From: Blastocatellia bacterium
GTDB lineage: Bacteria > Acidobacteriota > Blastocatellia > RBC074
DNA: 64,000 nucleotides
Direction: 5' to 3'
NCBI GenBank assembly: GCA_035652435.1
Contig: DASRDU010000081.1
Coordinates: 10,511 to 74,510 of the forward strand
A program made the translations under genes and the position numbers. The notes under the pieces were generated by a model. The model was not told the DNA's origin. It ran no database searches and saw only the letters and a list, made by a program, of their open reading frames with translations. Shown in pieces: positions 14,889 through 37,865 of this stretch (positions within the stretch are counted from its first letter, which is position 1; each line of letters starts with the position of its first letter).

Positions 14889-14900
14889 GGGAAAACAACC

Positions 14901-16155: not shown

Positions 16156-16178
16156 CAGCGAAAGACCACAGAGGGGCT

Positions 16179-17264: not shown

Positions 17265-17714
17265 CGACCGGGGCGCGGCCGGACGCTGTCCGGCTCATTC
17301 CCGGCCATCGAGACGCTTCAGCCCGACGGGCAGGCTGAGGCAAAATCCCGGCCGCCGATGGAACAACAGAATGAGGGTTGCGGCCTGCGAGTCGCCGTGC
17401 GGCCTCTGCCGTGGAAACTCGCCACCAGGATTCCCTCTCATCTTCGGATTGCCTGGCGCACGCTACCCCTGCTTGAGGAGTATTCAGGCGCAATCATCCC
17501 CACCCGTAACATTCAGGGCGGCAGTCTTATCTCTTCGTCTGCGCCCGGTCAATCTTTCAGTGTCACAGTCAGTAAATGAGTTGCCCGGAAGCCGCGCCTC
17601 CACCATACTGTGCCCGGCGCCGTGAGCGGTGAGTTCCAGACTATCTTCCTGCATCTGATCCGATTCAGATCAATACCACGCAAAGCGTAAGTGTGCCGGA
17701 CAGGCGAACGAGGA

Positions 17715-17768
17715 TTTCGGAAAATTTCGTCGTTTGTTCGTTACTTCGCTGGCAGGCTTCTCTATAGT
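17715..17768 (+). promoter_or_regulatory. Copy 3 of the conserved ~35-bp element (TTTCGGAAAATTTCGTCGTTTGTTCGTTACTTCGC) followed by TATAGT
   Basis: TTCG half-sites start at 17716, 17726, 17737 and 17745 (spacing 10, 11, 8). TTACTT (17741-46), a 16-nt spacer, then TATAGT (17763-68). Lies 82 nt upstream of the giant-protein ATG at 17850. Confidence 0.6.
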
Positions 17769-17849: not shown

Positions 17850-20800
17850 ATGAAGAAATATCTGTTTGCCCCCCTTCAGACATTGATTACCGATTCTTTC
17901 TGCCGCTGCCTGATCGTGGCTGCGATTTTGCTCGCGGCAGCCTCATTCAGCCACAGTTCATCTTCCGCCTCGGCGCGCCCGGGCGACAACCCCATCCCGG
18001 TCACGACCGTCTCCGCGGCCAGCTATGAGACCGGGGCCATCGCACCCGGCGCGATTGTCGCCTCGTTCGGCACGCTGCTGGCCACGCGCCTTGAGGTCGC
18101 GAGCAGCCTGCCGCTGCCGACCACGCTGGCGGGGACGACGGTCAGGATTAAAGACAGCGCCGGAGTCGAACGGCCGGCGCCGCTCTTCTTCGTCTCCGCG
18201 GGGCAGATCAACCTGGTGGTTCCAGTGGACACGGCCACCGGCACGGCGACGGTGACCGTGCGATCCGAGGACGGCACGGCCTCGACCGGGACGATGGAAG
18301 TCAAACCGGTCGGGATCTCGGTCTTCACAGCCAACTCGGACGGGCAGGGCGTCCCGGCGGCCTCCGCCCTGCGCATCAAGGCTGATGGCACACAGATTTT
18401 TGAAGAGATCTTGCAGTTTGACGCGACGCTCGGGCGCCGGCGGACGAAAGCGATTGATCTCGGGCCGGAGGCGGAACGCGTCTTCCTGATCCTTTACCTG
18501 ACCGGCATCCGCCGCGCGCCCGACCCGAATGGTGATGGCAACAGTAATGAGTCGGTGCATCTGGTCGTCGGCGGCACTGAACTCGTTCCGGCTTACGCCG
18601 GGGCGCAGGGGATTTTCGCCGGGCTGGATCAGATCAATGCCGAAATCCCGCGCAGCCTGCTCGGGCGCGGGCGAATCAATCTCACCGTCACCGGGCCGGC
18701 TGCGTCCTCCAACCCCACGGAGATCGAGATCGGCCCACCGGCGGGCGGCGCGCGGCCCGTGGTGAGCAGTTTCAGCACCGGGACGGCGCTGGCCGGGCAG
18801 ACGCTCGGCATCAACGGCAGCGGCTTTGCTACGGCGGCGGCCGGCAATCTGGTGCGGATCGGCGGGAACGAGGCGCGCGTGACTGCAGCCGCGGCCACTC
18901 AGCTTTCAGTCATCATCCCCTTCGGCGCGGAGAGCGGCCCGGTCAGCGTGCGGACGGGGCAGGGCGAGGGGATGAGCGCGGGCGCGCTCGCCGTGCGGAC
19001 TTCGATCAGCGGAGTCGTCGAAAATACCGCGCGCCAGCCGATGCCCGGAATCGGGGTGAAAGTGACCGGGACCGCCATCACCGCCACGTCCAATAACGAA
19101 GGCACTTTTATTCTCCCCGACGTTCCGGCGGGGGCCGCCATTGTCGAGATTGACGGGACGAACCTTGGCGTAGTGCCGCCGTACCCGAAGGTCACCCTCA
19201 AGACAATCGTGAATGCTCAGCGCGATAATCCCTTTCAGCGCCCGATTGCGATCCAGCAGGCCATCGGGCCGGGACTCCTCGTGGGATCGCCCGGCGACTC
19301 ACCGGAAAAACCCGGCTCCCCGGAACAGCCTTCACGCGTCGAGGCCACGAGCGGACTCGTGCGGTCCGGCAGCGTCATCTTCGAAGTCCCTGACAATGCT
19401 AAAGCGGTCTTCCCCGGCGGCGCGACCAGCGGCGTTGTGACCCTCACCATCGTCGAGAACAGCCGGACGCCCGCGCCATTACCATCAGGTCAGTTCAGTT
19501 CGACGATTGTCCAGCTCACCCCGTTCGGTGTGAAGCTGACCCCCGGCGGTAAACTGACTTTCCCGAACAGCGACGGCTATCCGGCAGGCACGCAGGCGAA
19601 GCTTTTCCGCTTCGACCAGACTCCCGGCTCGCCGACCATCGGCAGCTTCATTGAAGCCGGGACGGCCGCCGTCTCGGGCGACGGGCAGCGGATTGAAACA
19701 TCCGCCGGGGCGATCACTGAAACCAGCTACTACTTCGCTTCAATCCCGCGCCAGACGACTACCGTGGCGGGGCGCGTCGTGGACAGCGACGGCGCGACGC
19801 CGGTGCGGCTGGCATTCGTGCGCGTGCGCGGGCAGGAGACATTCACCGACGGCAACGGCGGATTCACTCTGCGCAACGTGCCGTTGAATTCGGCGAATGA
19901 GGGCATCACGGTTGAGGCGAGCTTCGTGCGGCCGGGTGGCCGGGTGGACCGCGTCCAGCGGAGCGGCGTCCCGGTCGTCATAAACGGACTGACGAAGGTC
20001 ACGCCCGATCTGGTGCTGACGGCGCCGAGCAGCAACCGCCCGCCCGTCATCCTCGCCCCATCAAGCGCCGTCGTCACGCGGGGCGAGACGCGCGACTTCA
20101 AAATCGTCATTAGTGACCCCGACGGTGATCAGACGGGGCAGGTGACGACGAGTGGCGCATCGTTCGCAGTCGTCAGCAGCGTGGCTCCGTCCGGCACTTA
20201 CAACCTGCGACTCACGCCCGGCGCGAATGACGCGGGCAATTACAACCTGGGCATCAACGTGGCGGACAGCCTCGGCGCGAACACGACGCAATTCATCGCC
20301 GTCAGGGTCAATCGTGCGCCCGTCGCGAGCGCGCAGACAGTGAGCCTTGGCGCGGGCGCGCCCAAAGCGATTACGCTTGCGGCGAGCGACCAGGACGGTG
20401 ACCCGTTGCAATTCATCATCACGGGCAATCCGACAGGCGGCGTTCTGAGTGGCACCGCGCCCAACCTCATCTACACCCCGAACCCAGGTTTCAGCGGCGG
20501 CGACAGCTTCACTTTCAAGGTCAATGACAACGTGATTGACAGCGGCGCGGCGACCGTCACGATCAACGTCACGGCGCCGGGCACGGTGCTGCGCACGCTC
20601 GTCCATCACCAGATCACTTCGTTCGCGGGCAATTTCAACACCGGCACCGGCCAGGCCCCGGTTCTGAGCGCCAACGGCAATCGCGCCGTCTACGCCATGG
20701 CGCCGGGGACGGAGGACCCGGCCAATCCCAACCGCATCTTCGTCATCAACGCCGACGGCACGGGCGTGCAGCAGGTGGACTCCTACACCACGCTCTGCTT

Positions 20801-22817
20801 CTGCGGATCGCAGGTGGACATCAGCGCCGACGGCTCGAAGGTGATCTCCACCGAGGGCCTGCAACTGCGCATCGCCAACGCCGACGGCAGCGGCGCGCTG
20901 GAGTTGATCAGGAACGTGGAGATCGCCACCATCCGCATCGCGGGCGACGGCAGCAAAGTTTTCTTCCTCATCCGGCGCGACAGCGGGCCGAAAGAGCGCG
21001 GCCTGTATGTCATCAACGCTGACGGCAGCGGGCTCAGGCAGATCGTCGGGCCGAATCAGGTCGCGAGCCTGCTCAGTATCCCTGCCGGCGAAGTGTTTCC
21101 GTTCGCCAGCGATCTGGGGAACGACCTCGGAGTTTCCAGCGACGGCTCGCGCATTGTGTTTGCGACCTATTCGCGGGGGCAGCGGATGTTCGGCGTCAAC
21201 CCGGACGGCACGGGGCTGCACCAGATCATCGGCCCGATTGATTTCGTGAGGACGACCGGCATCAGCGCCGACGGCTCGAAGGTGCTTTACAGGCTGAACA
21301 GCTTCGCGACCGGCCTCGACGAAGTCGGCGTCATCAACTTCGATGGCACCGCGCAGCGCAAGCTGGCGGATAACGACATCAACGGCCCGACGCGCTACCT
21401 GGGTGAATCCGGCGACCGGTATTCTCTGAGCGCCGACGGCTCCCGGCTGCTGGCCGGTTCATCAGGCATCGTGTTCGACACGGCGACCGGGGTGATGCTG
21501 CAACTCTCGGCGCGGTTCGGGGGCTTCGGCCTCCTCTACAATTCACTCTACCTCGCGACGATGAACAGCACGGCGACGCGCTTTCTCTTTGCCTTCGGTG
21601 ATGCCAGCGGCATTAACCAGCTGGTGTCGCTCGACGTCAATCCCGCCAGCCTCGGCGCGGCGCCCAGCCTGACGGCGCCCGCGATTGATCCGCTCTTCGT
21701 CCTGACCAATGGCGGGTCGGGGGCCACCGTCACGGCCAGAATGACGACCACCAACACGCTGCTCCTGATGGAATACGTCTTCCTCCGCGGCGGGCTGTTT
21801 GATCGCGACAGCAGCTTCAACGCGCTCTATGACGACGGACTCACGGCCGGGGATGCGAAGTCAGGCGATGGCGTCTTTACGAGCAACACGGTCAGCACCA
21901 ACTGCTGCACCGTCGTCGGCCCGCGCACGGCGCGCCTCAATGCAATGGTGCGGACGGCCGACGGCCGATTGCACGCGACGAGCGTTGATTTCGCGCCGTT
22001 CTTCGTCCTCGCGCAGGCGCCCGGCCCGACGGCGCCCGCGATCACCTCGCTCGCGCCGCCGAACGGCGCGCCGGGCGCGCAGGTCACGATCAACGGCAGC
22101 GGCTTCGACCCGACCGCCGCAGGTAACGTCGTCCTCTTCGGCAACCGCGTGGCACAGGTCGCGAGCGCCAACGCCGGGGGCACTCAGTTAGTGGTGACGG
22201 TCCCGGCTGATGTGGCCGTGGGCACGGTCGCCGTGACTGTTTCGGCAAGCGGGCGGACGAGCAACGCCGTGAATTTCACCGTGCCGAGCTTCAACCTGCT
22301 GCGCAACGGCGACGCCGAGCAAGGGACGCTTTCGACGACCGGCCTTGAGATCGTGCCGATCCCCGGGTGGACGACGACTTCAAATTTCACCGCGCCGGTC
22401 TACGGTCTGGCCGGTTGTATGTCGTCGGCTGAAGGGCTGCGCGTCGGCGGCGGCAGGGGTTATTTCGTGGGCGGCCCCGGCAACACGATGTCAACAGCCA
22501 CGCAGACGGTGGACGTATCGAGCGCCGCTACGCAGATTGATGCGGGGCAGGGAAGCGTTACTCTACAAGGGCAACTGGCCGGCGTGCAGACCGACACTGG
22601 CACGGTGCGGGCCGAATTCCTGAACGGCAACAGCGTCGTCATCGGCTCCTTCTCACTCGGCCCGGTGACCGGCACCGCTCACACTTTCCAGTTTAAGACG
22701 GCGACCAGCGGCGTCCCGGCGGGCACGCGCTCGATTCGCGTGACGCTGATCTCGACGGGCGGCAACAGCAATTACAACGAAGGCTATTTCGAGAATCTGT
22801 TTCTCGGTCTGAATTGA
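17850..22817 (+). CDS. Giant secreted multidomain surface protein G1 (~1655 aa): N-terminal TIGR03437-like module, IPT/TIG, CarboxypepD_reg-like, cadherin/Ig-like, PD40/TolB-like propeller, IPT/TIG, lectin-like C-terminus
   Basis: The track ORF opens at a GTG at 17691. The ATG at 17850 follows GAGAGG and gives the signal peptide MKKYLFAPL...[13 protein letters not shown]. Domain calls are from motif recall (see sub-features). Confidence 0.9.
   Translation: [1655 protein letters not shown]
17997..18698 (+). other. TIGR03437-like module located at the N-terminus of G1
   Basis: [21 protein letters not shown]...[39 protein letters not shown]...[14 protein letters not shown]...[32 protein letters not shown] aligns by eye with the C-terminal modules of G2 and G3. 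Confidence 0.75.
20585..22010 (+). other. PD40/TolB-like propeller plus cap module shared with the N-terminus of G2
   Basis: [97 protein letters not shown] parallels G2 residues [92 protein letters not shown]. Confidence 0.75.
22285..22814 (+). other. C-terminal jelly-roll, lectin-like domain of G1 (resembles the FBA/Fbs1 sugar-binding fold)
   Basis: [11 protein letters not shown]...IPGW...YFVGG...QTVDVS...IDAG...GTRSIRVTL...[10 protein letters not shown] recalls the NLLRNPCGEE...GW...Q.IDL pattern of FBA domains. Assigned by eye only. Confidence 0.4.
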
Positions 22818-22831: not shown

Positions 22832-25195
22832 TTACCGGTTCGTGATCCGCGCCTTCGCGGCGATCACTTCAGGGATGTCCTGGTCGGCGTCTTTCCAGAT
22901 TTGCAGGAAGCGTTCGTATGCGGCCTGCGCCCTGTCGCGTTCGCCCTTGCGCTCGTAAGCCTGGCCGAGGTGGTACTGCGCCAGTGGATAGTTCGGATTG
23001 AGGCGCAGGATGCGCTCGTATTCGGCGACGGCCTCGTCCGTCCGGCCCAGTTCCAGATACGCATTGGCCAGACAGTCTTCGTACGAGTCAATGTCCCATT
23101 CGACGGGCCGCTCGCGCAACGCCTCGCGGAAATGATTGAGAGCCTCTTCGGCGCGCCCCTGCCTGAGCGACAGATAGCCGCGCTGATAATTCCAGATGCG
23201 CAGAAAGCCGCGTTCCCGAAGGTGGTTGTAACTGGCCGGCATGAAAACTGTCTCGCTCAGTTTTTGCGCGGCGGCTTGGTCGTCGCGCGCGAGGGCGAGG
23301 GTGAGCGAAGTCCATAACGACGATGGAAGGTATTTCACTTCCTGACCGATGGCGGCGGCAGCACGTTGCAGGTCACCCTGCTTCAGCCAGACCCGGGCTA
23401 TGGAGTTGAAGCTGCGGGCGCGCTGATTATTATCACGCGCGATCTGCAGGTAGCGCTGGTACTGCCCGACGGCCGCGCGATAGCGGCCCTGCTGAAAATA
23501 AAGGTTGCCGAGGTGGATGATCGCGATTCTGGATTCAGGGTTGAGCGCGAGGGCCCGGCCATACGCGGCAAGGGCCTGGTCGTATTGCCCCAGCCACTGG
23601 TGGAACAGGGCCAGACTGTCCCAGGCATTCGGGTCGTTGGGCGTCAGTTGAATGTAGCGTTGATAAGCCGCCAGCGCTTCTTCATTGCGCCCGAGGCGCA
23701 TGCAGACGCTGCCGAGCGCGTTGTAGATGTCTTTCGCTTCGGGGTCGGTGACCAGCCCCTGCCGGATCGCCTGTAACGCCTCCTCATTCCTGTCCTGCGC
23801 CTGCAGCATCCAGTTCAGCTGCTGCCAGGCCTCGGTTTCCAGCGGGTAGCGGGCCAGCAGCTCGCGATAAATTTCGCCGGCGCGCGCCGGGTCATGGTCG
23901 GCCTGGGCCCGCCAGGCGACGATGAAGAGCTTGTCCCGTTCATTCAAACGTTCAGACAGCCGGAACGCCTTCTCCAGATATGGGAGGGCCTTTTCGCCCG
24001 AGCCAACCTTCGCGGCGTAAATGTAGCCGACGCGCGCATACGCCATCGCAAACTGCGGGTCGAGGGCGATGGCCTTTTCCAGCAGCGCAATCGCCTCGTC
24101 GAACTGAAACATCTGCGTCTGTTCGAGCGCCAGCGAGTAGTAGCGGTACGCGTCCAGATTGTCCGTCATCGCCGCGGCCAGCCCGCGCTCCTCGTCCCGC
24201 CCCGCGAAGTCCGCGCCCAGGTGCGAGGCCAGTTTGAGCGAGAGTGAATCAATCTCTGTCAGGATCAGCTCCGGGCGCTCGACGACCAGCGCCTCGGCGG
24301 CTTCGATCTGCCCGGTGCGCGCCTCGTGCAGCGTGACGTCAATCCGCACCTCGTGCCCGAGCCGGGCGAAGCGGCCCAGGATCAGCACCTCCGCCTGCGC
24401 GCGCCGCCCCACTTCCAGCCCGTCCTCCAGCCGGAGCTGCGCCGCGTCCCGGTAGCCGATGTGATCGAGCAGCGCCGCCAGCTGCTGCCGACTGAGCAGC
24501 GTCAGGCGCGGCGAGCGCGAGAGGTTGGTGATCAACATATCGGCGAGGCCCTCGCGCAGCCAGTCCAGCTCGCGGTCGCCCGACTGATTCTCGAAATAGA
24601 GTACCGCCACCGCCCGCCTGCCCGGCACGTGCGGCAGGGCGACTTCCGCCGCCGCCGGCCGGCGCCTGCTGAAATGGAAGGCCAGGAGTGCGGTGAGCGC
24701 CACCAGACCGATCCCCAGCACGGCCAGCCACACGAGGGGAGGCCGGCGCCAGGTTCGTCGCGTCGTGAGCGCCGGCGGGGCGGCCGGCTGATCCGGCTGA
24801 TGAAATTCCTCGGTAAACTCGACCTGGACGGAGGTGATCTCCTCGACCTCGTATGCACCGTGCGGCAGAGACTCTTCGACCGGCCCGATGAAACGATAAC
24901 CGGCTTTCGGGACGGTCCTGATGAAGCGCGGCTGGCGCGAATCGTCGCCGAGCAGCCGGCGCAGCTCGACGATGATCTGCACCAGCGCGTCGGGCGTGAC
25001 CGCCGCCCCTCCCCAGACGTTTTCGATCAGTTCCTCTTTCGTGACCAGCTGCCCGCGGCGGTCGAGCAGGTAGAGCAGCACCTGCAGGCTCTTCTGCCGC
25101 AGCGCCAGTTCCTCGCCGTCGCGCCGGAGCGAGCCGCGCGCCGGGTCAACCTCAATGCCCGCGACACGATAAATTGGCCTGTCGAGAATCTGCAT
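22832..25195 (-). CDS. Membrane-anchored ToxR/CadC-like transcriptional regulator R1: wHTH (trans_reg_C), single TM, TolB_N-like domain, TPR array
   Basis: wHTH motifs [29 protein letters not shown]...[12 protein letters not shown]; [24 protein letters not shown]; [28 protein letters not shown]; multiple TPRs. The track ORF opens at a TTG at 25222. The ATG at 25195 matches the N-terminus of the paralog. Confidence 0.88.
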
Positions 25196-25224
25196 GACTC
25201 TGTCCCGGAACGTGGGCGGCAAAG

Positions 25225-25260
25225 TTTCGGAAAAATATCGTGACTTTGTCGTTACTTCCG
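25225..25260 (+). promoter_or_regulatory. Copy 1 of the conserved ~35-bp element (TTTCGGAAAAATATCGTGACTTTGTCGTTACTTCCG)
   Basis: Half-sites TTCG 25226, ATCG 25237, GTCG 25248, TTCC 25256 (spacing 11, 11, 8). Lies 30 nt from the R1 ATG. A TATAGCAC box sits 176 nt further on, at 25436-25443, 27 nt before the small-ORF ATG. Confidence 0.55.
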
Positions 25261-25469
25261 CCCGCCGCCGATGAGAGAAAGGGTCCGTCAGTAACAGCCA
25301 GCATCCGAATGATTGTTTGATCGGAAGGTTTTCGTTTTCCCTTCATTAACTCCAGCCCGCGTTTTGTGCGAGGACAAAACCGGGTCAGGAAAGACCAGTC
25401 GGGATCGAACCGGAGTGCCGCAATCGCGGCGGGAGTATAGCACGGCCGCCGTGCGGAACAGGAGACCGG

Positions 25470-25718
25470 ATGAAGCGAACCCGGAAAGTAACGATCACCA
25501 CCACGCGCCGCCGCACGCTGCGCGTCCAGCCCGCCATCCGCGCGCGCTGCCCGGTCTGTCAGCACGAGGTCGAGACGCTGGCCACTGCTCACGCCGCCGA
25601 AGTTCTGGAAATTGATGCTGAGACACTCAACCGGCTGGTTGCCGCCGGCCGGGTTCACGCCATCGAAACCGTGAGCGGCAGCTTTCGGGTCTGTCAGGAG
25701 TCGCTCTTTTCAAAGTAG
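25470..25718 (+). CDS. Small conserved protein S1 (82 aa): Arg-rich N-terminus, CxxCxH...C motif, excisionase/MerR-like HTH; function unknown
   Basis: By my hand alignment, 53 of 82 positions are identical to the 37617-37865 ORF, and the conserved block differs mainly at synonymous third positions. GGAG lies upstream of the ATG. Its stop is 9 nt before the G2 ATG, and the G2 AGGAGG overlaps S1's stop codon and last sense codon. Confidence 0.65.
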   Translation: MKRTRKVTITTTRRRTLRVQPAIRARCPVCQHEVETLATAHAAEVLEIDAETLNRLVAAGRVHAIETVSGSFRVCQESLFSK

Positions 25719-25727
25719 GAGGTGGAA

Positions 25728-28700
25728 ATGAACGCGCGGAGATTAACCCTTGCCTGCACCCTGCTCATCATCAGTCTCGCAGCGATTCTGCCCCGGTCCC
25801 GGCAGGCCGAGAGTGCTCAGGAACCCCGACGGGCCGCCAATCACCCGGCCGCAGCGGCCGGCAACGGAGCGACGGGTGAACCAGTCCAGGCCCAGGCCGT
25901 CGCGGGCACGATCCTCCGCACGCTGGTCTATCACGAGATCACCTCATTGAACCGGAGCGCCATCGCCGAAATCGCCCAGGGGTTTCCCCTCCTCAGCAAG
26001 AATGGGAATCGCGCGGTCTTCACCATCATCACAGGCGATGGCATGAGGCACATCTTCGTCATTAACTCTGACGGCACCGGGCAGCGCGAAATAGATTCAA
26101 ACGACTCTTTCGCTCCGTTTTTGGACATCAGCGCCGACGGCTCAAAAGTGCTTTACACCAATCGCAACCTCATCCGCATGGCCAACGCTGACGGCACTAA
26201 CCTCCACGACGTCGTGAACATCGGCGGTGGTTTTATCCAGGTCCGCCTCTCCGCCGACGGGACGAAAGTTTTTTTCACCGTTGACCGCGACTTCCCCATT
26301 GGGAGCGAGAATCTGACGAAGGGGCTCTATGTCATCAACGCCGATGGGAGCGGTCGCCGGCAGATCGTCAGTGGCGCGACCCTTGCGACACTGCTCGGCG
26401 CTCCAGCAGGTGGTAACAACTTCGTCAGTACCTCCGGCACATCTTTGGATGCGTCCGCCGATGCCTCGCATATCATCTTCGGCACCAGCATTGATGGAAA
26501 AGGCCAATATCTCCTCGGCGTCAATTTTGACGGCAGCGGGCTGCACCAGATCCTCGGCCCCGTAGATTTCCTGAATCATGCCGTCATCAGCGGCGATGGG
26601 CTGAAGGTGGCCTATGACCTCACTCTTCCGCCCTGCTGCTCCACTCCGAGTGAAGCGGGTGTGATCAATTTCGACGGCACGCAAAAGAAGACCTTAGTGA
26701 CCCAAACGGCCCCTTTCCGCGGCTATCCCGGCTCCGGTACTCCGATCCAGCTCGGCGCCGACGGTTCCAGATTGCTCTTCGGCACGGGCGTCCTCTTTAA
26801 CACGGCGACGGGCGAGGCGCTGCAACTGGCGGCGATTGGCGGTAACTTCTCAAGTGATCCTCAGTTTCTGGTCAATGAAGGAATGCGCGTTGCGACCATG
26901 AACAGCAGCGCGACACGCTTCCTCTATCTCGCGCCCGACCCGAACAACGTGCTGCAACTGGTGACGCTGGACCTTAACCCCACGAGCCTCGGACTCGCGC
27001 CGAGCGTGACCGACCCGAAGCTCGACCCGACCTTCGTCATCACGTCAGGGCGCGGGAGAGCCACCCTCAGCGCCAAGGTGAGTGCTTCGGGCACGCTCGT
27101 GCGCGTGAACAATTCCATCCTCTTCAAGGGGCTCACCAATGCCAACGCCTTCAACGGGCTGACCGACAACAATGTTGACTGGCTGGTCCTGCTCGATGAC
27201 GGCACCCACGGCGACACCACAGTCAACGATGGCATCTTCACTAACAATAGTCTCGGCGCCAATTGCTGCGCTGTCCTCGGTTCGCGCCTGGTACGGGTCA
27301 AAGCCGAAGCACGCGGTACAGACAGTAAACGCCATGCGACCGCCATTGACTTCGAACCCCTCACCGTCACCGACCAGGTGCCCTCGATTGACGTGTCGCA
27401 GACGAGCCTCGATTTCGGCAGCGTCAGCGTCGGGCAGAGCAAAGACCTGACCCTGACGATCCGCAACGTCGGGACGAGTCAGCTCACGGTCAATTCGCTC
27501 AACAGCGATAACACGCAATTCAGCGTGCCTCCGCCGCCTGCTGCGCCTTTCACCATCGCCCCTGGTGGACAGCAAACCATCACCGTACGCTTCACCCCCA
27601 GCGCGGTCGGCCCGCAGGGCGGCCGGCTGACGATCAACAGCACCGACCCGGCGCGTCCGAACATTGACGTGTTCCTCTCCGGCGTCGGGGCCACTTTGAG
27701 CGTCACGGTCAATGACCACCGGACGAGCGGCGGCCCCATCCCTGACAATTGCGCCCCGCCCGCCTTGAAATCCAGCTTCACGCCCGCCGACGCGCAGGTG
27801 TTTCAGTGGACCTTTGTTTCGGGCTTCCAGAATGGCGCGGTCATCCGCTGGGAGTGGGTTCAGCCGAACGGCACGATTTACCGGCAGTTCCAGGCCCCGG
27901 TCAACAACACCAGCCAGTTTGTTTGTTTCTGGGATGCGATAGGCATCGCCGGCCAGCCCGCGGCCTCGCTGCCCGGCACCTGGCAGGTGCGCGTCTTTTA
28001 CAACGGCACGCAGATCGTGACCGACACCTTCACCATCTCCGCCGCCAGCAGTTGCCCGACCGCCGGTGGCATCAACCCAACGAGCGGCGCCGCCGGGACG
28101 AGTGTCATCATTACCGGCGCGAACTTCACCGGCGTGACCGTGGTCAGGTTCGCCAATAACCTCACCGCGAATTTCACCGTCAACAGCGATACGCAAATCA
28201 CCGCGACCGTACCGGGCGGCGCCGTCACCGGCCCGATCACTATCGGCAAGCCCAATTGCCCTGACGTACAGACCTCCACCTTCACCATCTGCACATACTC
28301 CATCTCACCAACCAGCCAGAACTTTGCCGCGGGCGGCGGGACGGGCAGCGTGGGCGTGACGACGCAGTCGGGGTGCGCGTGGACGGCGACGAGCAACGCC
28401 GGATTCATCACAATCACTGCGGGCACGCCGGGCAGCGGCAATGGCACGGTCAATTATTCGGTCGCGGCCAATACGAGCACCAGCGCGCGCAGCGGCACGA
28501 TGACGATTGCCGGCCAGACCTTCACGGTCAATCAGTCGGGCTCGACCACCGGCGCGCCGCTGATCCGCATCGAGCCCGGCGCGCTCAGCTTCAACGTCCC
28601 GCGCGGGCAGTCGTCCGGCCCGGTCTCATCGGCCGCCAGTCAGATCGAACCTCAGCAGTCCACTGCGGCGGCAGCGCAGGACAAAGATGAAATAGAAAAG

Positions 28701-31700
28701 GAGCGCGAGGAAGAGGGCGATCATGTCGAGGAGTATCGTGAGTGGTTTTACGGCCAGCGGCAGTACCCGTTCACTGACATCCCGGCGGGCGCGCGCGAGC
28801 GCGCGATCAGGGAGAAGGAGCGGGCCGCGGAGCGGATGCGGGCCTCTTCGACCGAAGAGGCGAAGGCCGCCGTCTCGCAGTGGACTTCCCTCGGCCCCTC
28901 GATGACCGGCACCGGGCGTTACGGCAACGTCAGCGGGCGCATCACGTCAATCATCGTCAATCCGAATGACCCGAACGTCGTCTATCTGGGCGCGGCGCAG
29001 GGCGGGGTGTGGAAGACCACGAATAACGGCGCGAACTGGATCCCGCTCACCGACGACCAGCCGTCGCTGGCCATCGGCTCGCTCGCCTTCGACCCGAACA
29101 ATCCGAACATCGTCTACGCGGGGACGGGCGAGCAGAATTTTGCGGGCGACAGTTACTACGGCAACGGCGTCCTGAAATCCACCGACGGCGGCGCGTCGTG
29201 GTCCGTACTCGGCGCTTCGGTCTTCGCGCGTCAGACCATCGGGCGGATTGCTATCAATGCCAGTAACACTCAGGTCATCTTCGCCGCGGCGGGCAACGGG
29301 CTGTACCGCACGACCGACGGCGGCGCGACGTGGACCCGCGTCCTGCCGGGCGCGCTGCGCGCGGCGACCGACGTGGTGGTGACCACGACGGCGGTCTACG
29401 CTGGTATCGCGAGCGACGGCGTCTACAAATCAACCGACGGCGGCAGCAACTGGACGAAGCTGACCGCGGGGCTGCCCGCCGGCGGCTTTTTCCGCGTCCA
29501 CCTCTCAAGCTCCGCGGCCAGCCCGAATACACTGGTCGCGCTGCTGGCCACCAATGGCGCTCTGGAGGGCATTTATCGCACCACTGACGGCGGGGCGAAC
29601 TGGGGCAAAACCGCGGACACGCCGACGGGCATTTTCGGCGGCCAGGGGTTCTACGACATCTCGCTCGGCCTGCACCCGACCAACTCAAACATCATCTACT
29701 TCGGCGGGATTGATGTCGGGCGCACGACCGACGGCGGCGCGAGCTGGACGAACCTGACGAAAGGTTATCAGGGCGGCGCCGTCCACACCGATCAGCACGC
29801 GATTGCCTTCAACCCGCAGAACCCTGCGGTCGTCTGGATCGGCAACGACGGCGGCGTCTGGCGCTCGGATAACGGCGGCGACACGTGGGCGAACCTGAAT
29901 CAGGGCCTGGGCATCGCGCAGTTCCAGAACATCGCGCTGCACCCGACGGACAACAACATCAATTACGGCGGGACGCAGGACAACGGCATGCAGAAATACA
30001 CCGGATCGAGCGTCTGGCGCGAGTCGTTCCCCGGCGACGGCGGCCCCGTCATCGTTGACTTCAACACGCCGACCACGGTCTACGGCGAGTACATCCACCT
30101 GCAACTTTTCAAGTCCACAGACTCCGGCAACCCGAACACATGGCCCGCCGCCACCAACGGCATTCCCTTCGTCAAAGGCAACGCCGACGGGCGCTCGGCT
30201 TTCTACGCGCCGGTTGCGATGGACCCGACGAACCCGCTGAAGCTCGCCGCCGCGACCTACCGCGTCTTCTACACGACGGACGGCGCGGGCAACTGGGCGA
30301 GCGTGAGCGGCGACCTGACCGGCGGGCAGGTGATCAATGCGATCACGTTTGCCGCTGGCGGCGCGCGCCTCTGGACGGGCAGCACCGACGCGCAGGTGTG
30401 GCGCGGCGATCTGGTCAACGGCTCGTGGGCCTGGACGAACGTGAATAAGGCGCCATTGCCGAACCGCTTCGTGACGCGAATCGCCGCGCACCCGACCGAC
30501 CCGCAGACGGCTTATATTTCATACTCCGGCTTCGGGACCGACCACGTTTTCAAGACCACCGACGGCGGCACGACGTGGACGAGCGCGAACGGCGGGCTGC
30601 CAGACATCCCCGTCAACGTGGTGCTCGTTGACCCGAACAATCCGGGCACGGTCTATGCCGGGACGGACATCGGCGTCTACCGCTCGACCGATCAGGGGCA
30701 GAACTGGACGCCGTACGGGACGGGGCTGCCGAACGTCGCGGTCTTCGATCTGGCGATCAGGAAGAACGGCAACCTGCTCCGCGTCGGCACGCACGGGCGC
30801 GGGATGTGGGAGATTCAGACGACGGGCGAACAGAGCTTCACCATCTACAATGACGGCGACGCGACGCTGACTGTCACCGGCATTACCAAACAGAACAACT
30901 CCCCGTGGTTTTCATTCACCACGCCTTCGGCGATCCCGTTCGACGTCCCGCCAAAAGGCTCCGTGCCGGTGCGCGTGAGCATCAACGCGACGGGGCTCAA
31001 TGCCGGAGTGTTCACGGACCGTCTGCTCGTGACTTCAAACGACACCGCGCGCAGTCCGTACCCGACCGGCGTCTTTATCAACCTGAACGTGACGGACAGC
31101 GGCGGAGGTGGCGGCTGCACCTTCACGATTTCACCATCGAGTCAGTCATTCAATGCGAGCGGGGGCACCGGCAGCGTCGGCGTGACCGCGCCCGGCGGGT
31201 GTCCGTGGACGGCGGTCGCGAATGATTCGTGGATCACGATCACGTCAGGCGCGAGTGGCAGCGGCAACGGCACGGTCAGTTACGCGGTCGCCGCCAACAC
31301 CGGCGCCAGTTCGCGCGCCGGCACGTTGACAGTCGCCGGGCAGACCTTCACCGTCACGCAATCCGGGGGCAGCAACTGCACGTTCACACTCTCGCCCACC
31401 AGCCAGAACTTCGGCGCGAGCGGTGGCAGCGGCAGCGTGAATGTCACGACACAAGGCGGTTGCAACTGGGCGGCGAAAAGCAATGCCGACTGGATCGTCA
31501 TTACCTCCGGCGCGAGCGGCGCCGGCAACGGCGCCGTCGGCTTCATCGTGGCCGCGAACAACAGCACCAGCACTCGCAGCGGAACAATGACGATAGCCGG
31601 GCAGACATTCACCGTCACGCAGACGGGTGGCAGCGGTTGTGTCTTCACCATCTCACCGGCGAATCAGGTCTTCGCGGCCACCGGCGGCAACGGCAGCACG

Positions 31701-34700
31701 AGCGTCTCAACGCAGTCGGGCTGCAACTGGACGGCGCAGAGCAACGATGACTGGATCGTCATTACCGCGGGCGCGAGCGGCGGCGGCGGCGGCACGGTCA
31801 GTTACGCGGTCGCCGCCAACAACAGCCCCGTCCCGCGCGCCGGAACGATCACTGTCGCCGGCCAGACGTTCGTCGTCGGGGAACTCGGAACCGGCGCGAC
31901 CTGCGGACTCACGCCCATCAGCATCGGGCAGACCGTGAGCGGGGAACTGGCCACTACTGATTGCCGTTCGCCGATTGACGGGACCGATTTTTACGCCGAC
32001 CTGTGGTACTTCACCGCCTCGGCGGGGCAGCAGGTGGCAATCTCGCTCAATTCGGCGGAGTTCGACGCCTTCCTGACGCTGATCGGGCCTGACGGTGCGA
32101 TTGTGGATGATGACGATGACGGCGGCGGCGGGACCAACGCGCGCATCCCGGCGACGAACGGCTTCATCACGCTGCCACTGGATGGGACTTACATCATCGA
32201 AGCCAGCAGCGCGTTCAAGGATGAGACAGGCAAATACACGCTCAGTCTGATTGCGCCCGCGGGCTGCACGTTCTCAATCTCACCGTCCGGCCAGTCGGTC
32301 AGTGCGAACGGGGGCACCGGCAGCGTCAGTGTGACGACGCAGGGCGGCTGTGCCTGGACGGCGACGAGCAACGTTGACTGGATCGTCATCACCTCTGGCA
32401 GCAGTGGCGCCGGCAATGGCGCGGTGAATTACTCGGTCGCAGCGAATGCGAGTTCTTCGCCGCGCACCGGCACACTCACCGTCGCCGGACAGACCTTCAC
32501 CGTTACGCAGCCGGGCGGCAGCAACTGCACGTTCACACTCTCGCCGACCAGCCAGAACTTCGGCGCGAGCGGTGGCGCCGGCAGCGTCAGTGTGACGACG
32601 CAGACGGGCTGCAACTGGGTGGCGCAGAGCAGCGCCGACTGGATCACGATCACTGCGGGCGCGAGCGGCAGCGGCAGCGGCGCGGCGAATTACTCGGTCG
32701 CGGTGAATAACGGCGTCGCGCGCACCGGGACGCTCACGGTCGCCGGACAGACCTTCACCGTCACGCAATCGGCCAGCAGCAATTGCACATTTACGCTCTC
32801 GCCGACCATCCAGTCATTCGATGCGAAGGGCGGTAACGGCAGCGTGGGTGTCAGCACTTCGGCCGGCTGCACGTGGACGGCGGCCTCCAACGTGACGTGG
32901 ATCGCCGTCCTCGCCGGGACTGAAAGCGGCCAGGGCAGCGGCTCGGTCGGCTACTCGGTCGCCGCCAACACCGCCAGCAGTTCGCGGCAGGGCACGATCA
33001 CGATTGCGGGCCAGACGTTCACTGTCACTCAGTCGGGCGGCGGAAGCAGTTCGTGCATTGATGTGGCGATCTCCAACTCGCTCACGGGCAGCGCGGGCGG
33101 CACGCTCACCGTCCCGATCACAGTCTCCGACCTGACGGGCAAAGGCGTTTTGTCATATGACGCCACGATCACGTTCGATCAGAGCGTCCTGCGCCCGCAG
33201 AGCGCGCCCTTCGACCGGACGGGCACGCTCAGCAGCGCGATGACCGTGACCGCGAACACCGCTACCGCGGGACAGGTGCACATCTCCGCCTTCAGTGCGA
33301 GCGCGCTCGTCGGGGCGGGCGCGCTGCTCAATCTGAAGTTCGACGTGATCGGTGCGGCGGGCTCGTGCAGCAGCCTCAACTGGGCGAGCTTCAAATTCAA
33401 CGAGGGCACGCCGTGCGCCACGACGGCGAACGGCAGGGCGTGCGCCGGCGGCGGTTCGATGTCGGGCACGGTCACTTACTGCGTTACGCCGAAGCCCGTG
33501 CCCGGCGTGGTCGTCACGGCGAGCGGCACGCCCGCGGCCTCGAACACGACCAACGGCTTCGGCGTCTTTCAGGTATCGGGCCTGGGCGGCGGCGCTTACA
33601 CGCTGACGCCGGCGAAGACGGGCGACACTAACGGCATCACATCTTTTGATGCCGCGCTGGTGGCGCTGAGCGTGGTCGGCGCGAATACGCTCACGGCGTG
33701 TCAGCAGGTGGCCGGCGACGCGAGCAACAACGGCAGCCTGTCGTCGTTCGACGCGGCGCTCATTGCGCAGTACGTCGTCGGCATCAGCAACCCGTCGAAC
33801 TTCACTGGCACATGGAAATTCACTCCGCCCTCGCGCTCGTACGCGAGTGTGAGCGGCGACCAGACGGGGCAGAATTTTGACGCCGTACTGGTGGGCGACG
33901 TCTCGGGCAACTGGACGCCGGGCGCTGGTATTGCGTCGAATCAATTCGCTCTCTCAACCGATTCGGCGGGCGCGGTGGCGCAGACGACCGTCTCGCTGCC
34001 GTCAATCACCGCGACGTCGGGCACGAGCATCACGATCCCGATCACGGTCGGCGACCTGACCGGCAGGAATGTGATTGCCTATGACTTCGACCTGACCTTC
34101 GATCAGAACCTGTTGCAACCGATGAATCCGGCCTTCGATGCGGCGGGGACGTTGTCCGGCGCGATGACGATCACGCCGAATGCCACGCCGGGCCGGCTGC
34201 GCGTCTCGGCCTTCGGCACGACCGCGCTCGCGGGGTCAGGCACACTGCTCAACCTCAAATTCAACGTCATCGGATCGGGGGCTGCGACGGGACTCACGTG
34301 GCAGAAGTTCCTGCTCAACGAAGAAACGCTCGGCCAGAGCAACCTGACCAGCGGGAGCGTGAACGTCAACCGCCTCGTCACGACCGTGTCGGCCGCGAAT
34401 TACAAGGGTGCCGACCTCGCGGCTGAATCAATCGTCGCCGCTTTCGGGTCCTCGCTGGCGACGAGTATCGCCGCCGCCAGCACCATCCCCCTGCCGACGT
34501 CGCTCGTCGGCACGACGGTGAAAGTGAAGGACAGCGCGGGAATCGAACGGCTCGCCGCCCTCTTTTTCGTCGCGCCGTTGCAGGTCAATTATCAACTCCC
34601 GCCCGGGACCGCACCCGGCCCGGCCGTCATTACCATTACCAGCGGAGACGGGTCGGTTTCATCCGGCGCGATCAACATCGTCAGTGTCGAGCCCAGCCTC

Positions 34701-35093
34701 TTCACCGCCAACTCGGACGGGCAGGGCGCCCCGGCAGCTTACGTGATCCGCGTGAGGGCCGATAACTCGCAGAGCATCGAAGCGGTCGCGCGCTTTGATG
34801 CCGTGCAGAGCAAATTCCTCCCCGCGCCGCTCGACCTCGGCCCCCCGAGCGATCAGATCTTTCTGGTGCTGTTCGGGACCGGCGTTCGGTTCCGCAGTTC
34901 GCTCCCGGCCGTGAGTGCGAAGATCGGCGGGGTTGACGCGCGGGTTGATTACGCGGGGCAGCAGGGCGGATTTGTCGGCCTCGATCAGCTCAACGTATTC
35001 GTGCCGCGTGCTCTGGCCGGGCGCGGCGAAGTGGACATTGCACTGACGGTGGACGGGAGGACTGCCAACACTGTGAAGGTCAATATCAAATGA
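25728..35093 (+). CDS. Giant secreted multidomain protein G2 (~3121 aa): PD40 propeller module, choice-of-anchor-D-like, IPT/TIG, 7 BACON-like repeats, Asp-box (BNR/sortilin-like) propeller, PPC, cohesin-dockerin-cohesin, C-terminal TIGR03437 module
   Basis: ATG at 25728 lies 5 nt after AGGAGG. Signal peptide [22 protein letters not shown]. The track ORF opens 6 nt upstream at a GTG. Domain motifs are listed in the sub-features. Confidence 0.92.
25911..27375 (+). other. PD40/TolB-like propeller plus cap module (paralogous to G1 20585-22010)
   Basis: See the G1 sub-feature. The blocks are collinear and conserved by eye. Confidence 0.75.
27385..27692 (+). other. Choice-of-anchor-D / ASH-like Ig domain
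   Basis: [38 protein letters not shown]...[34 protein letters not shown] second copy is at about 30835-31100. Confidence 0.6.
28290..28545 (+). repeat. BACON-like repeat unit 1 (~84 aa)
   Basis: [84 protein letters not shown]. Confidence 0.75.
28873..30818 (+). other. Asp-box (BNR) sortilin/VPS10-like beta-propeller region
   Basis: I counted 11 S/T-x-D-x-G-x-x-W type motifs, e.g. [50 protein letters not shown]. Confidence 0.8.
31115..31889 (+). repeat. Three tandem BACON-like repeat units (units 2-4)
   Basis: Each unit starts C(T/V)F(T)(I/L)SP..Q.F.A.GG.GS and ends AGQTF(T/V)V. The period is about 255 nt. Confidence 0.8.
31902..32258 (+). other. Pre-peptidase C-terminal (PPC)-like domain
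   Basis: [67 protein letters not shown]...[10 protein letters not shown]. Confidence 0.6.
32265..33040 (+). repeat. Three tandem BACON-like repeat units (units 5-7)
   Basis: Same unit as 31115-31889. Units 3 and 6 share a 51-nt stretch with a single mismatch (31376-31426 versus 32526-32576). Confidence 0.8.
33054..33420 (+). other. Cohesin-like domain 1
   Basis: [48 protein letters not shown]...[31 protein letters not shown]. Confidence 0.65.
33621..33785 (+). other. Dockerin-like duplicated segment
   Basis: Two related segments: [20 protein letters not shown] and [23 protein letters not shown], with Ca-loop-like D/N-rich starts. Confidence 0.6.
33984..34325 (+). other. Cohesin-like domain 2
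   Basis: [46 protein letters not shown]...[30 protein letters not shown]. Confidence 0.65.
34377..35090 (+). other. C-terminal TIGR03437-like module of G2
   Basis: [25 protein letters not shown]...[39 protein letters not shown]...[16 protein letters not shown]...[47 protein letters not shown]. Confidence 0.8.
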
Positions 35094-35147
35094 GTGACCA
35101 GGGGCGTGGCCGCAGGGGTGAACGCAGAACGGATGGCCGTCCCTGAT

Positions 35148-37511
35148 CTATGATGGGTCAGTCAGTCTGGCTTTCGCCGCGATCACTTCCGGGATGTCCG
35201 GATCAGCATCCTGCCAGATTTCGAGGAAGCTGCGGTAAGCGGCCCGCGCCCGCTCGCGCTCACCTTTGCGCTCGTAAGCCTGGCCGAGATGATAGTGGGC
35301 GAGCGGGTAGTTCGGATTGGTTTTCAGGATGCGTTCATATTCGGCGCCGGCTTCGTCCACGCGCCCCAGTTCGAGATACGCATTCGCCAGACAATCCTCA
35401 AACGAATCAATGTTCCATTCGGCGGCGCGGTACTGCAAGGCGGTGCGGAAATGATTGAGCGCGTCCTCCCCGCGCCCCTGCTGCAAGGCCGCCGTGCCCT
35501 GCTGGTACTCCCAAATGCGCAGCTTGCCGCGTTCCTGATAAACCTCATAGGTTGCGGGGGCAAAGACTTCCGCGCTCAGTTTCACCACGGCAGCCTGATC
35601 GCGTTGCCGGAGCGCCAGGGCGAGCGAATTCCATAACGAGCCCGGGTTGTATCTGACTTCCGCCTGCGCCGCGGCGGTGGCGCGAGCCACATCGCCCCGC
35701 TTCAAATACAACCAGGCCAGGCAGTCGAAGCCGCGCGCGCGCGCGCCGTCATCGCGGGCAATCTGGATGAAACGCTGATACTGTTCCGCCGCCGCGCGAT
35801 ACCGCCCCTGCTGAAAGCGCAGATGGCCCAGATGAATGACCGCCACACCCGATTCGGGGTTGAGCGCGAGCGCGCGGTTATAGGCCGCTTCAGCCTCGGC
35901 GTATTGCCCGCTCCAGCGATGGAATTCCGCCAGACTGTCCCACGCATTCGGATCGTTCGGCGCAAGCTGGATGTAATGTTGAAAGGCTGCCAGCGCCTCA
36001 TCATTCCGCCCCAGCCGCATGCAAACTGAGCCGAGCGCGTTGTGCAGGTCTTTCCACTCCGGGTCAGTGAGCAGCCCCTGCCGGATGGCCCGCAAGGCTT
36101 CTTCATTTCGATTCTGCGTCTGCAACACCCAGCTCAGCCGCTGCCAGGCTTCGGTCTCCAGGGGGTAACGCGCAAGCAGGTTACGATATACTTCAATGGC
36201 CCCCGCCGTGTCGCGGGCGGCAGTGGCGAGCCACGCAGCGATAAACAGCTTATCCTTTTCACTCAGACGACCGGCGAGCGTCAGAGCCTTTTCCAGATAC
36301 GGTCGGGCCTTTTCGCCCTGCCCCATGCGCACGGCGTACACATAGCCGATGCGTGCGTGCGCCAGCGCAAACTGCGGGTCGAGCGCCAGAGCTTTTTCGA
36401 GCAGCGCAATGGCTTCGTGAAACTGATACATCTGAGCCTGCTCGAGCGCCAGGGAGTAATAGCGGTACGCATCCAGATTACTCGTCATCACCGCCGCCAG
36501 CCCGCGGTGGGCGTCTGCGTCCGTCAGCGTCGCGCCCAGATGCGTGGCCAGCTTGAGCGAGAGCAAATCAATTTGCGTCAGGATTTGCGCGGGCGTATCC
36601 GCGACCAGCGATTCCGCCGCCTGCAATTGCCCCGTGTGCGCGTCGTGCAGCGTGACATCAATCCGCACCTTGTCGCCGAGCCGCGCAAAGCCGCCGAGGA
36701 TCATCATCTCGGCCTGCGCGCGCCGCGCGATCTCCAGGCCGTCTTCGAGTTTGATTTGTGCGGTATTCTGCCACCCCGTGTGACTGAGCAGGGCGGCCAG
36801 CTGCTGCCGGCTGAGCAGGGTCAGCCGCTGCGAACGCGAGAGGCTGACAATCAGCATGTCCGCTAACCCTTCGCGCAACCAGTCCAACTCGCGGTCGCCC
36901 GCCCGGTTTTCAAAATACAACACGGCCACACCCCTTTTGCCCGGCACGTGCGGCAGGCTGATTTCAGCGCGCGTGGCGCGGCGATAGAGGTAGCCGCCGA
37001 GCGGGACCAGAAGGGCCAGGGCAATCAGGGAAACAAGGAGGCGGGGAGACAAAGAGACGGGGAGGCGAGCCTGTTCTATCTGGCGCCCTGTCACCCCATC
37101 TCCAGATTGTCCCGGCTCGACAACTTCTTCATAGCCGATTTCGACCGATGTGAACTCTTCGACTTCCAGCGCGTGGCCGAGCTTTTCGACCTCGCCGATA
37201 AAACGGTAACCGGCCCTGGGAAAGGTTTTAATAAAGCGCGGCTGCTGGGAATCTTCGCCCAGCGCCTTACGAATCTCAACGATGCACTGTACCAGCGCGT
37301 CGTCTGTGACCGCCGCGCCCTGCCAGATTTGCTCCATCAGTTCTTCTTTGAGAATGAGGCGCGGGCGCTGTTCGATCAGGTAAAGCAGGACCTGGAGGGA
37401 TCTGGGACGCAGGCAAAGCTCGTCGCCGTTCCGCTTGACCTGGCCGCTGAGCGGGTCAAGCTCAGCCCCGGCTAAGCGGTAAATCAGCTTGTCCGCCCCC
37501 TTGTTCATCAC
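35148..37511 (-). CDS. Membrane-anchored ToxR/CadC-like regulator R2 (paralog of R1): wHTH, TM, TolB_N-like domain, TPR array
   Basis: Collinear with R1 along its whole length, e.g. [36 protein letters not shown] versus [36 protein letters not shown]. The first codon at 37511 is GTG; an ATG follows at 37508. Confidence 0.88.
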
Positions 37512-37532
37512 AAATCGTTTGTTCCCGGCAAA

Positions 37533-37590
37533 ATTCGGAGAAATTCGTCGCGCGTTCGTTACTTCCGGCGCGGGTGCGCCGGATTATAGC
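37533..37590 (+). promoter_or_regulatory. Copy 2 of the conserved ~35-bp element (ATTCGGAGAAATTCGTCGCGCGTTCGTTACTTCCG) followed by TATAGCAC
   Basis: Half-sites TTCG 37534, 37544, 37555 and TTCC 37563 (spacing 10, 11, 8). TATAGC at 37585-90 lies 27 nt before the small-ORF ATG. Aligns to copy 3 without gaps, with about 27 of 35 positions identical. Confidence 0.6.
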
Positions 37591-37616
37591 ACCTCGTAAG
37601 GAGAGGACTAAGCCCG

Positions 37617-37865
37617 ATGAAAGTGACGCGCCGTCTGAAAATCACTGTCACCCGGCGCCGCATACTGCGTTCGGCGGTGGCGCCCGTGCGAGCCTTTTGT
37701 CCGGTTTGCGCGCACGCGGTCGAGACGCTCAGCGCGGCGCAGGCCGCCGAGGTGCTGGAAATTGACGGCCAGGCATTGGCCGGCCTGATCGCTGCCGGGC
37801 GCGTGCATGCAATTGCACTGGTGAGCGGCAGCCAGCGGGTCTGTCAGGAATCGTTGTTTGCTTAG
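37617..37865 (+). CDS. Small conserved protein S2 (82 aa), paralog of S1
   Basis: [19 protein letters not shown]...[64 protein letters not shown] lies upstream of the ATG. Confidence 0.65.

Follow-up and report, generated by a model that had tools for sequence, protein, structure and literature searches.

What is the task of two small proteins encoded directly ahead of very large ones? The question is raised by a 64,000-nucleotide (nt) stretch of contig DASRDU010000081.1 from Blastocatellia bacterium (assembly GCA_035652435.1; hereafter the window), in which two paralogous genes for proteins of 82 amino acids (aa), S1 and S2, each lie between a divergent regulator gene (R1 or R2, respectively) and a large gene (G2 or G3). 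An earlier reading of this DNA, the original prediction, took S for a zinc- and nucleic-acid-binding co-factor of giant genes, which would serve either as a co-activator with R or as an RNA-binding antitermination factor. We find that S is a tail-bearing, putatively zinc-strapped new variant of the excisionase/BldC winged helix and belongs to a large unannotated family. This family is so far known from Acidobacteriota alone, and its defining genomic property is the partnership with a ToxR-like membrane regulator. Taken jointly, the identity of S, its fold class and its linkage to R can be stated with high confidence.

S is a protein under purifying selection

Both S genes have the coordinates and the 82-aa lengths that had been given for them. 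Their paralogy, first judged from a hand alignment, is borne out by BLASTP, which aligns S1 and S2 with 56/83 identities (E = 4e-36); the MAFFT-based codon comparison gives 55 identical positions, against 53 in the hand count. Different codons are used at 28 of these 55 identical residues, and the synonymous differences pointed out in the AAEVLEID block (GAA/GAG, GTT/GTG and GAT/GAC) are all present. The Nei-Gojobori (NG86) estimates of non-synonymous (dN) and synonymous (dS) divergence between S1 and S2 are 0.30 and 1.37, with a ratio of 0.22, and eight further S pairs from related loci have dN/dS values of 0.16–0.47. S is therefore a protein under purifying selection and not a chance frame in DNA of 63% G+C, a view that the original prediction had based on the synonymous differences and that the size of the family also bears out. 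The basic N-termini and the motifs CPVCxHxVETL and RVCQESLF were found in S1 and S2 alike. A tblastn search of the window with S1 and S2 returned no third copy. An antisense ORF (open reading frame) of 168 aa overlaps S1 on the minus strand (window 25152–25658); since the S frame is the one under selection, this ORF most likely just reflects the high G+C content.

A large family beyond the reach of curated models

A profile search carried exhaustively through 1.84 billion representatives gave 552 clusters at E ≤ 1e-3 and 135 clusters at E ≤ 1e-10, counted as clusters at 50% identity; nearly all of these relatives are 80–110 aa long and align with S from end to end. A word-indexed protein search with S1 alone as the query gave two relatives only, and a second indexed search with the S family profile gave 91 proteins, nearly all of them unnamed or 'hypothetical' and a few labelled as belonging to the excisionase family. 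The few relatives with a named taxon belong to Blastocatellia or Pyrinomonadaceae, and the genome matches are throughout metagenome-assembled genomes of Acidobacteriota/Blastocatellia; narrower S alignments gave 5 genome loci and 13 metagenome loci. All conservation counts for S given below refer to 83 aligned members.

No curated family was found that covers the entire S protein. S1 matches HTH_17 (PF12728) with 17.8 bits (E = 0.004), below the cut-off of 27, and S2 does not match this model; the TIGR01764 excisionase domain (15.2 bits, E = 0.021, cut-off 28.8) and the BldC model NF033787 (16.2 bits, E = 0.007, cut-off 77) likewise remain below threshold. Across the family, 21/83 members match HTH_17 at E ≤ 0.01, the best at 1.7e-6, and by these profile scores S appears as a divergent relative of HTH_17/excisionase proteins rather than a threshold member. 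For annotation, the family can be recognized by the signature MKRxxKhKITxxRRR...CxxC...H...C..SLF. In two related loci (L032, 3350–3508; L033, 234–392) the match to S is limited to residues 1–51, after which the frame diverges; a frameshift is probable, reflecting either a pseudogene or an assembly error.

Predicted fold and putative metal site

An AlphaFold2 model of S, built on the 83-sequence alignment, has a mean predicted local distance difference test (pLDDT) score of 78, with low confidence for the tail, residues 1–22. The predicted topology is β-β-α-α-β-β-α, comprising a strand at 23–26, the CxxC turn, a strand at 33–38, helices at 39–45 and 50–58, wing strands at 64–66 and 72–75 and a helix at 76–80. 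In Foldseek, the top match in the PDB is the Xis protein of mycobacteriophage Pukovnik (4j2n; template-modelling score 0.80 on the target, root-mean-square deviation 0.9 Å over 46 columns), followed by BldC–DNA complexes (6ama/6amk), RacA and N-domains of the MerR family; for 4j2n, 6ama and 5i44 the Foldseek probability is 1.00, with template-modelling scores of 0.55–0.80 on the target. Matches in BFVD, which holds predicted viral structures, are phage excisionase/HTH_17 proteins, and it is the 46-residue core alone that aligns. These models agree with the helix-turn-helix of excisionase/MerR type that had been suspected: the S core is predicted to be an excisionase/BldC/MerR-type winged helix, and the N-terminal strand, the CxxC knuckle and the basic, probably disordered tail appear as additions to it.

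The comparison with known relatives gives the same division. S has in common with Pukovnik Xis and HTH_17 proteins the 46-residue β-α-α-β-β core and the pattern LTxxEAAxxL...G...(wing), whereas the extra N-terminal strand, the CxxC knuckle, the invariant H63 and C75 and the 22-residue basic tail set it apart from them, as do an acidic and variable helix 2 and the absence of a recombinase partner. Compared to classical MerR proteins, S ends 7 residues past C75 and has a C-terminal helix of 5 residues only, with no coiled-coil or effector domain.

Four residues with zinc-type side chains are conserved. C30, H63 and C75 occur in 83/83 members and C27 in 82/83, and E33-V34-E35, A42, L46, G70 and S78-L79-F80 are nearly invariant. 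The Cys/His motif of the original prediction is thus upheld in that four such ligands are conserved, but not in its composition, CxxCxH...C: its His, residue 32, is present in S1 and S2 and is Arg in 71/83 members, the invariant His being H63. In the predicted topology, the CxxC turn precedes strand 33–38, H63 precedes strand 64–66 and C75 ends strand 72–75, which brings all four residues to the same edge of the sheet and makes a single metal site geometrically plausible. The likely ligands are C27, C30, H63 and C75, most likely around one Zn(II); zinc is the default guess for the metal, with iron or a redox-active disulfide as alternatives.

Two other resemblances were set aside. A similarity to bS20 in a profile search of PDB sequences (E = 0.012) is compositional, bS20 being all-helical and S a predicted winged helix, and the TRRRTLR segment of the tail, which resembles the Tat signal (S/T)RRxFLK, is not followed by a hydrophobic h-region.

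R is the constant genomic partner of S

The gene found with S throughout is the regulator. From 35 related loci, counting duplicates once and including the two window copies, we obtained 26 independent S genes for which ~150 nt or more of the upstream sequence is available, and in 26/26 of them a homologue of R lies upstream on the opposite strand, so that the proposed tie between S and R is borne out. In most loci R is directly adjacent to S, across a spacer of 105–480 nt; insertions between the two are a 107-aa ORF in L009, a 538-aa ORF in L018 and, in L008, a frameshifted S pseudogene together with a gene for 1839 aa, located between R and an intact S. The L008 pseudogene (2497–2740) directly follows R, with remnants of CPVC and VCRDSLF still legible, and the intact S of that locus (8295–8570) has no same-strand gene after it. 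A search with the N-terminal 200 aa of R gave 14 matches, mostly fragments.

R consists of a Trans_reg_C winged helix, one transmembrane helix, a CsgG-like domain and ~8 tetratricopeptide repeats. In the AlphaFold2 model of residues 1–200 of R1, the winged helix has a pLDDT of ~94 and a helix is predicted at residues 153–177. On account of the winged helix-turn-helix (wHTH), the single transmembrane helix and this model, R is predicted to be a transmembrane transcription regulator of the ToxR/CadC type; ToxR-like transmembrane regulators are reported to be comparatively abundant in the class Acidobacteriae (PMC10269533). In the window, the module of R, S and the following gene, which we refer to as cargo, is tandemly duplicated (22832–37865, R1-S1-G2 and R2-S2-G3), with an identity of 62–72% between the R copies and 67% between the S copies.

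Boxes and putative facing promoters in the R–S spacer

All R–S spacers contain, beside the R start codon, three or four direct repeats with a period of 11 bp (hereafter boxes). Their consensus is TTTCGGAAGAA TTTCGTCnTTT TGTCGTTACTT, with the last repeat over a −35-like GTTACT and a weak −10-like TGnGA(T/G)AA ~17 nt after it; in the S1–G2 promoter, too, the weak −10-like element is found ~17 nt past GTTACT. An array of direct repeats with an 11-bp period over the −35 element is the classic layout for winged-helix regulators of the OmpR/PhoB family. Judging from the consensus, the boxes would belong to an activator-dependent promoter directed toward S and its cargo.

A second element, with an ATTATA core that is usually part of GGATTATAGCAC, is located ~20–30 nt ahead of the S start. 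Read on the opposite strand in 20 loci, the core is TATAAT in 15, TATACT in 4 and TATGAT in 1, and ~15/21 of the R-directed −10 elements examined are extended by TGn; where a promoter on the S strand would have its −7 T, T never occurs. Because the invariant positions are sensible only on the R strand, the element is assigned to that strand, and we infer that ATTATA/GTGCTATAATCC is the R promoter, facing the box promoter across 105–270 bp of the R–S spacer. At the R2-directed element, GATTAT on the plus strand is found 18 nt after GTTACT. Beyond the boxes and the −10 elements, no conserved motif was left over in the spacer.

The reader of the boxes is suggested by two loci, L013 and L028, in which the box core is changed from TCGT to TAAT and the recognition helix of R from DDALVQxIxE to DNALLQCIFD (AVTDNALLQCIFD); S helix 2 differs between the two. 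Because box core and R recognition helix are changed together, this co-variation supports R as the box reader. S itself is disfavoured as a reader of the TTCG boxes: its helix 2 is acidic and variable, and the boxes co-vary with R.

S is coupled to secreted-protein genes of widely differing length

On its other side, S is closely followed by the cargo. Across 16 loci, the next same-strand gene begins between −17 and +61 nt from the S stop, which supports co-transcription of the two genes and, in many loci, coupled translation; the tight coupling pointed out for the window is thus a general feature. The junctions in the window are as originally described: the TAG stop of S1 (25716–25718) is separated by 9 nt from the ATG of G2 at 25728, with AGGAGG at 25717–25722 overlapping the stop codon, and the S2 stop (37863–37865) by 35 nt from the ATG of G3 at 37901. 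A gap of 9 nt with TAGGAGG is found in the S1 locus (W1) and in L016, and L021 has an overlap of 4 nt.

In all 16 loci the cargo has a signal-peptide-like start, and its length ranges from 115 to 3123 aa. Given this range, the link to giant genes is not family-wide; it is a local feature of the window and not a property of the S family. The idea of S as a co-factor of giant genes finds no support in this range, nor in G1, a gene of ~5 kb for a protein of 1.65 kaa (thousand amino acids), which counts as part of the same box regulon and has a box promoter, with S and R not attached to it.

A tentative accessory role for S

The best explanation that we can offer is that S is the soluble accessory subunit of R. 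Taken as a whole, with docking and feedback included, we would give it a little short of an even chance; among the options of the original prediction, a co-activator with R is the most plausible. S would be a small cytoplasmic partner dedicated to R, in which CxxC, H63 and C75 would strap the N-terminal hairpin to the wing, most likely via one Zn(II). The OmpR-type winged helix of R would read the 11-bp-spaced TTCG boxes at the −35 element of a weak promoter, from which S would be transcribed first, followed by one or more secreted-protein genes. Because S would be the first gene transcribed from the promoter that R reads, its level would rise only when R is active and would then feed back on the switch. 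The S tail, (R/K)(V/L)KITTxRRR, would pair with the acidic linker between the wHTH and the membrane helix of R, so placing the docked S domain beside R on the promoter, where it would stabilize or de-repress the DNA-bound regulator. The feedback would be positive and would act on a promoter opposite to the TGnTATAAT promoter of R.

Docking of the tail on the linker is proposed on the grounds of charge complementarity, conservation, low model confidence and controls that lack the motif. The cytoplasmic linker of R has the consensus (V/I)E(V/I)EE(I/V)T(S/T)VE(V/I)E(Y/F)EE and a net charge of −5 to −11, and the S tail, with the pattern (R/K)(V/L)KIT(T)xRRR(T)(L)R and a net charge of +6 to +10, is its mirror image; on average, the S tail has +7.0 ± 1.2 and the folded domain of S −3.1 ± 1.7. 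Tail and linker are conserved but are modelled with low confidence when AlphaFold2 is given single chains, a combination typical of segments that fold on binding. The acidic motif is absent from a PD40-type transmembrane regulator without S in L021 and from an R-like protein in L036, where the 310 nt at hand contain no boxes and no S. Docking is the least secure step, and for the mechanism that combines it with positive feedback the balance is tipped somewhat against. The widest picture that could be drawn, an undescribed two-protein membrane-tethered switch in which an excisionase fold that lost its ordinary DNA reading would be recruited to a ToxR-like regulator by a charge-complementary β-zipper of tail and juxtamembrane linker, the two facing promoters would be tipped into an ON state that reinforces itself for secreted-protein operons and the module, with interchangeable cargo, would have been duplicated many times in Blastocatellia, appears rather unlikely in its entirety.

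Several observations weigh against an accessory role. Across loci, the net charge of the S tail does not correlate with that of the R linker (r = 0.04, n = 11), and the controls without the acidic motif number only two. Since G1 has boxes but lacks an S, S in cis is dispensable, and activation may do without S altogether. The nearest structural relatives, Xis and BldC, bind DNA directly, and the basic residues R61, R73 and K/R76 are conserved in or near the S wing. As for the promoters, the co-variation of boxes and R helix is one evolutionary event, L013 and L028 being related; the calls use the sigma-70 consensus in a phylum with poorly mapped promoters, and a generic scan demanding both hexamers found no full −35/−10 promoter.

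Among known systems, the accessory role would place S closest to the small partners of ToxR-like regulators. ToxS and TcpH are membrane or periplasmic proteins, co-transcribed after their regulator, whereas S would be cytoplasmic, with no hydrophobic or transmembrane segment; its gene is divergent from R and heads the target operon, and it has a predicted DNA-binding fold. The likeness to ToxR/ToxS, TcpP/TcpH and CadC lies in the layout of R, with a cytoplasmic OmpR-type wHTH, one transmembrane helix and a periplasmic sensor, and in the small gene for a dedicated partner (background in PMC10269533). If the tail–linker contact is true, it would be a new way of coupling a soluble factor to a transmembrane transcription factor, in a compact system of one regulator, one 82-aa partner and one spacer. 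Promoter control by membrane-anchored ToxR-like regulators is still poorly understood, and the S family, with hundreds of clusters that are almost all 'hypothetical', is an obligate genomic partner of one class of such regulators. The analysis of S and R also yields probable operator boxes, the arrangement of the promoters and a regulon of secreted surface proteins, many of them giant, in soil bacteria that are abundant but little studied.

Alternative roles of S

The main rival to the accessory role takes S for a stand-alone DNA-binding or architectural switch in the manner of P2 Cox, 186 Apl or BldC, which would bind the spacer by wing and tail and shut or modulate the facing R promoter, or its own promoter, without touching R. 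The best fold matches of S are DNA-bound Xis and BldC, and the R–S spacer has two putative facing promoters, one of which would transcribe S first. Facing promoters are also the layout of the switches of P2 and 186, where a small Xis-like protein is encoded at the head of one arm. S may contact DNA by its wing and its strongly basic tail, in view of the conserved basic residues near the wing listed above. Helix 2, the canonical recognition helix, points in the other direction: its segment has a charge of −1.5 ± 1.1, and its exposed positions 49–52, 54 and 55 are the most variable in S (2.6–3.4 bits), though the spacer motifs are highly conserved. Since this helix is acidic and hypervariable, ordinary sequence-specific reading of DNA by S is doubtful, and reading via helix 2 is unlikely. 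Moreover, the net charge over 38 HMMER-aligned residues is +6 in BldC but −2 in S1 (phmmer of S against BldC chains gives E = 0.28), and every conserved spacer motif is already assigned to boxes or −10 elements.

The proteins on which this rival is modelled differ from S in further respects. P2 Cox and 186 Apl belong to phage lysis–lysogeny switches with an integrase, whereas the other arm of the S locus encodes a membrane sensor-regulator and the cargo consists of secreted proteins; neither Cox nor Apl is among the top Foldseek matches of S. S is like BldC in being a small MerR-type wHTH protein that stands alone, lacks effector and coiled-coil domains and has tandem direct repeats near its gene, but the repeats at S co-vary with R, not with S, and BldC has neither a zinc site nor a dedicated membrane partner. 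Streptomyces BldC, a MerR-like protein of 68 aa, binds direct repeats head-to-tail (PMC5859096). A stand-alone DNA switch is, in our view, unlikely, though deserving of serious attention.

A second rival differs from the accessory role only in sign. As an anti-activator, S would bind the linker or the DNA-binding face of R, its acidic domain mimicking DNA or sigma region 4, and would provide negative feedback. The R–S linkage and the charge data fit this equally, the folded domain of S is acidic, and there is a faint similarity to sigma region 4/PhyR sigma-like domains (E = 0.03–0.1 for S1 and S2, 8e-5 in one member), although these matches are far under threshold. The sign of the effect cannot be read from the sequence. 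An inhibitor tightly coupled to its own cargo would limit the output at every locus, a possible but less economical arrangement. We regard an anti-activator as improbable.

The option of an RNA-binding processivity or antitermination factor, whose Arg-rich tail would act on the leader RNA, draws on that tail and on the place of S as the first gene of very long operons in the window. Neither a leader structure nor a terminator pattern accompanies it: no conserved hairpin was found around the only conserved leader element, and the region 24900–38200 has 11 terminator-like sites where 11.0 are expected. A candidate hairpin presenting a AUUAUAGC loop to the tail was dropped, since 522/2000 swaps of flanks between loci reached the observed sum. 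The cargo genes can be as short as 115–277 aa, and G1, at ~5 kb, has the promoter but no S. [quoted passage not shown] S has a general likeness to AlpA and Q as a presumed positive regulator near its target, with a DNA-binding helix-turn-helix and an N-terminal segment put to another use (PMC7969949, PMC9371919), but the fold of these factors is different and larger, S being a predicted winged helix of 82 aa, and terminators are not evident at the S locus. We regard antitermination as very improbable.

That S is the recombination directionality factor of a mobile element is hardly credible: its fold, the weak HTH_17/TIGR01764 similarity and a few entries named 'excisionase family' would suit such a role, but no integrase or recombinase lies consistently beside S in the annotated loci, and a scan of window genes that flank the modules showed a Che-like cluster and a gene for outer-membrane efflux but no recombinase. 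The constant neighbour of S is R, and the two S copies of the window, 12 kb from each other, have a chromosomal setting.

Features of the window and neighbouring genes

Table 1. Coordinates of the S, R and cargo genes and of the candidate promoter elements in the window.
Feature	Coordinates	Strand	Description
S1	25470..25718	+	82-aa protein, predicted excisionase-type wHTH, putative Zn strap
S1 layout			basic tail 1-22; CxxC 27-30; wHTH 33-80; H63; C75
S2	37617..37865	+	82 aa, paralogue of S1
R1	22832..25195	-	predicted transmembrane transcription regulator; likely start ATG at 25195; open frame to 25222
R1 layout			OmpR/CadC-type wHTH 1-110; acidic linker motif 115-130; transmembrane helix 153-177; CsgG-like domain; tetratricopeptide repeats
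R1 acidic linker motif, codons 115-130	24806..24853	-	conserved; disordered in AlphaFold2 model; proposed S-tail dock
R2	35148..37508	-	paralogue of R1; C-terminal part 72% identical, N-terminal domain 62%
S1-G2 box promoter (candidate)	25225..25282	+	three 11-bp-spaced boxes TTTCGGAAAAA TATCGTGACTT TGTCGTTACTT over -35-like GTTACT
R1-directed extended -10 (candidate)	25432..25443	-	GGAGTATAGCAC (+) = GTGCTATACTCC (-), TGnTATACT; 27 nt upstream of S1 ATG
S2-G3 box promoter (candidate)	37532..37564	+	boxes AATTCGGAGAA ATTCGTCGCGC GTTCGTTACTT
R2-directed extended -10 (candidate)	37581..37592	-	GGATTATAGCAC (+) = GTGCTATAATCC (-)
G1 box promoter (candidate)	17714..17768	+	boxes ATTTCGGAAAA TTTCGTCGTTT GTTCGTTACTT (17714-17749), 17 nt, TATAGT (17763-17768)
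G1	17850..22817	+	secreted large protein; Big_9, TIG, CarboxypepD_reg; likely start MKKYLF at 17850
G2	25728..35093	+	secreted giant; BACON, sortilin-like, ASH/Ig and cohesin domains; first cargo after S1
G3	37901..42970	+	secreted large protein; BACON_2, Ig-like; cargo after S2

G1 runs toward the 3' end of R1, the two genes being convergent. The start given for G1 by the ORF finder, GTG at 17691, would make the reading frame run through the box promoter, and the ATG listed in Table 1 is the likely real start. Just upstream of the G1 promoter lies a chemotaxis-like cluster (window 5590–17264) that encodes a PAS-rich methyl-accepting chemotaxis protein, CheW, CheR, CheA, CheB, a GAF protein, a CheY-like receiver and a DUF4388 protein. 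In two loci with a distant S, the place expected for the cargo is taken by an RVT_1 reverse-transcriptase gene (L018, 8986–10461; L019, 1489–2967), which is possibly of group II intron origin.

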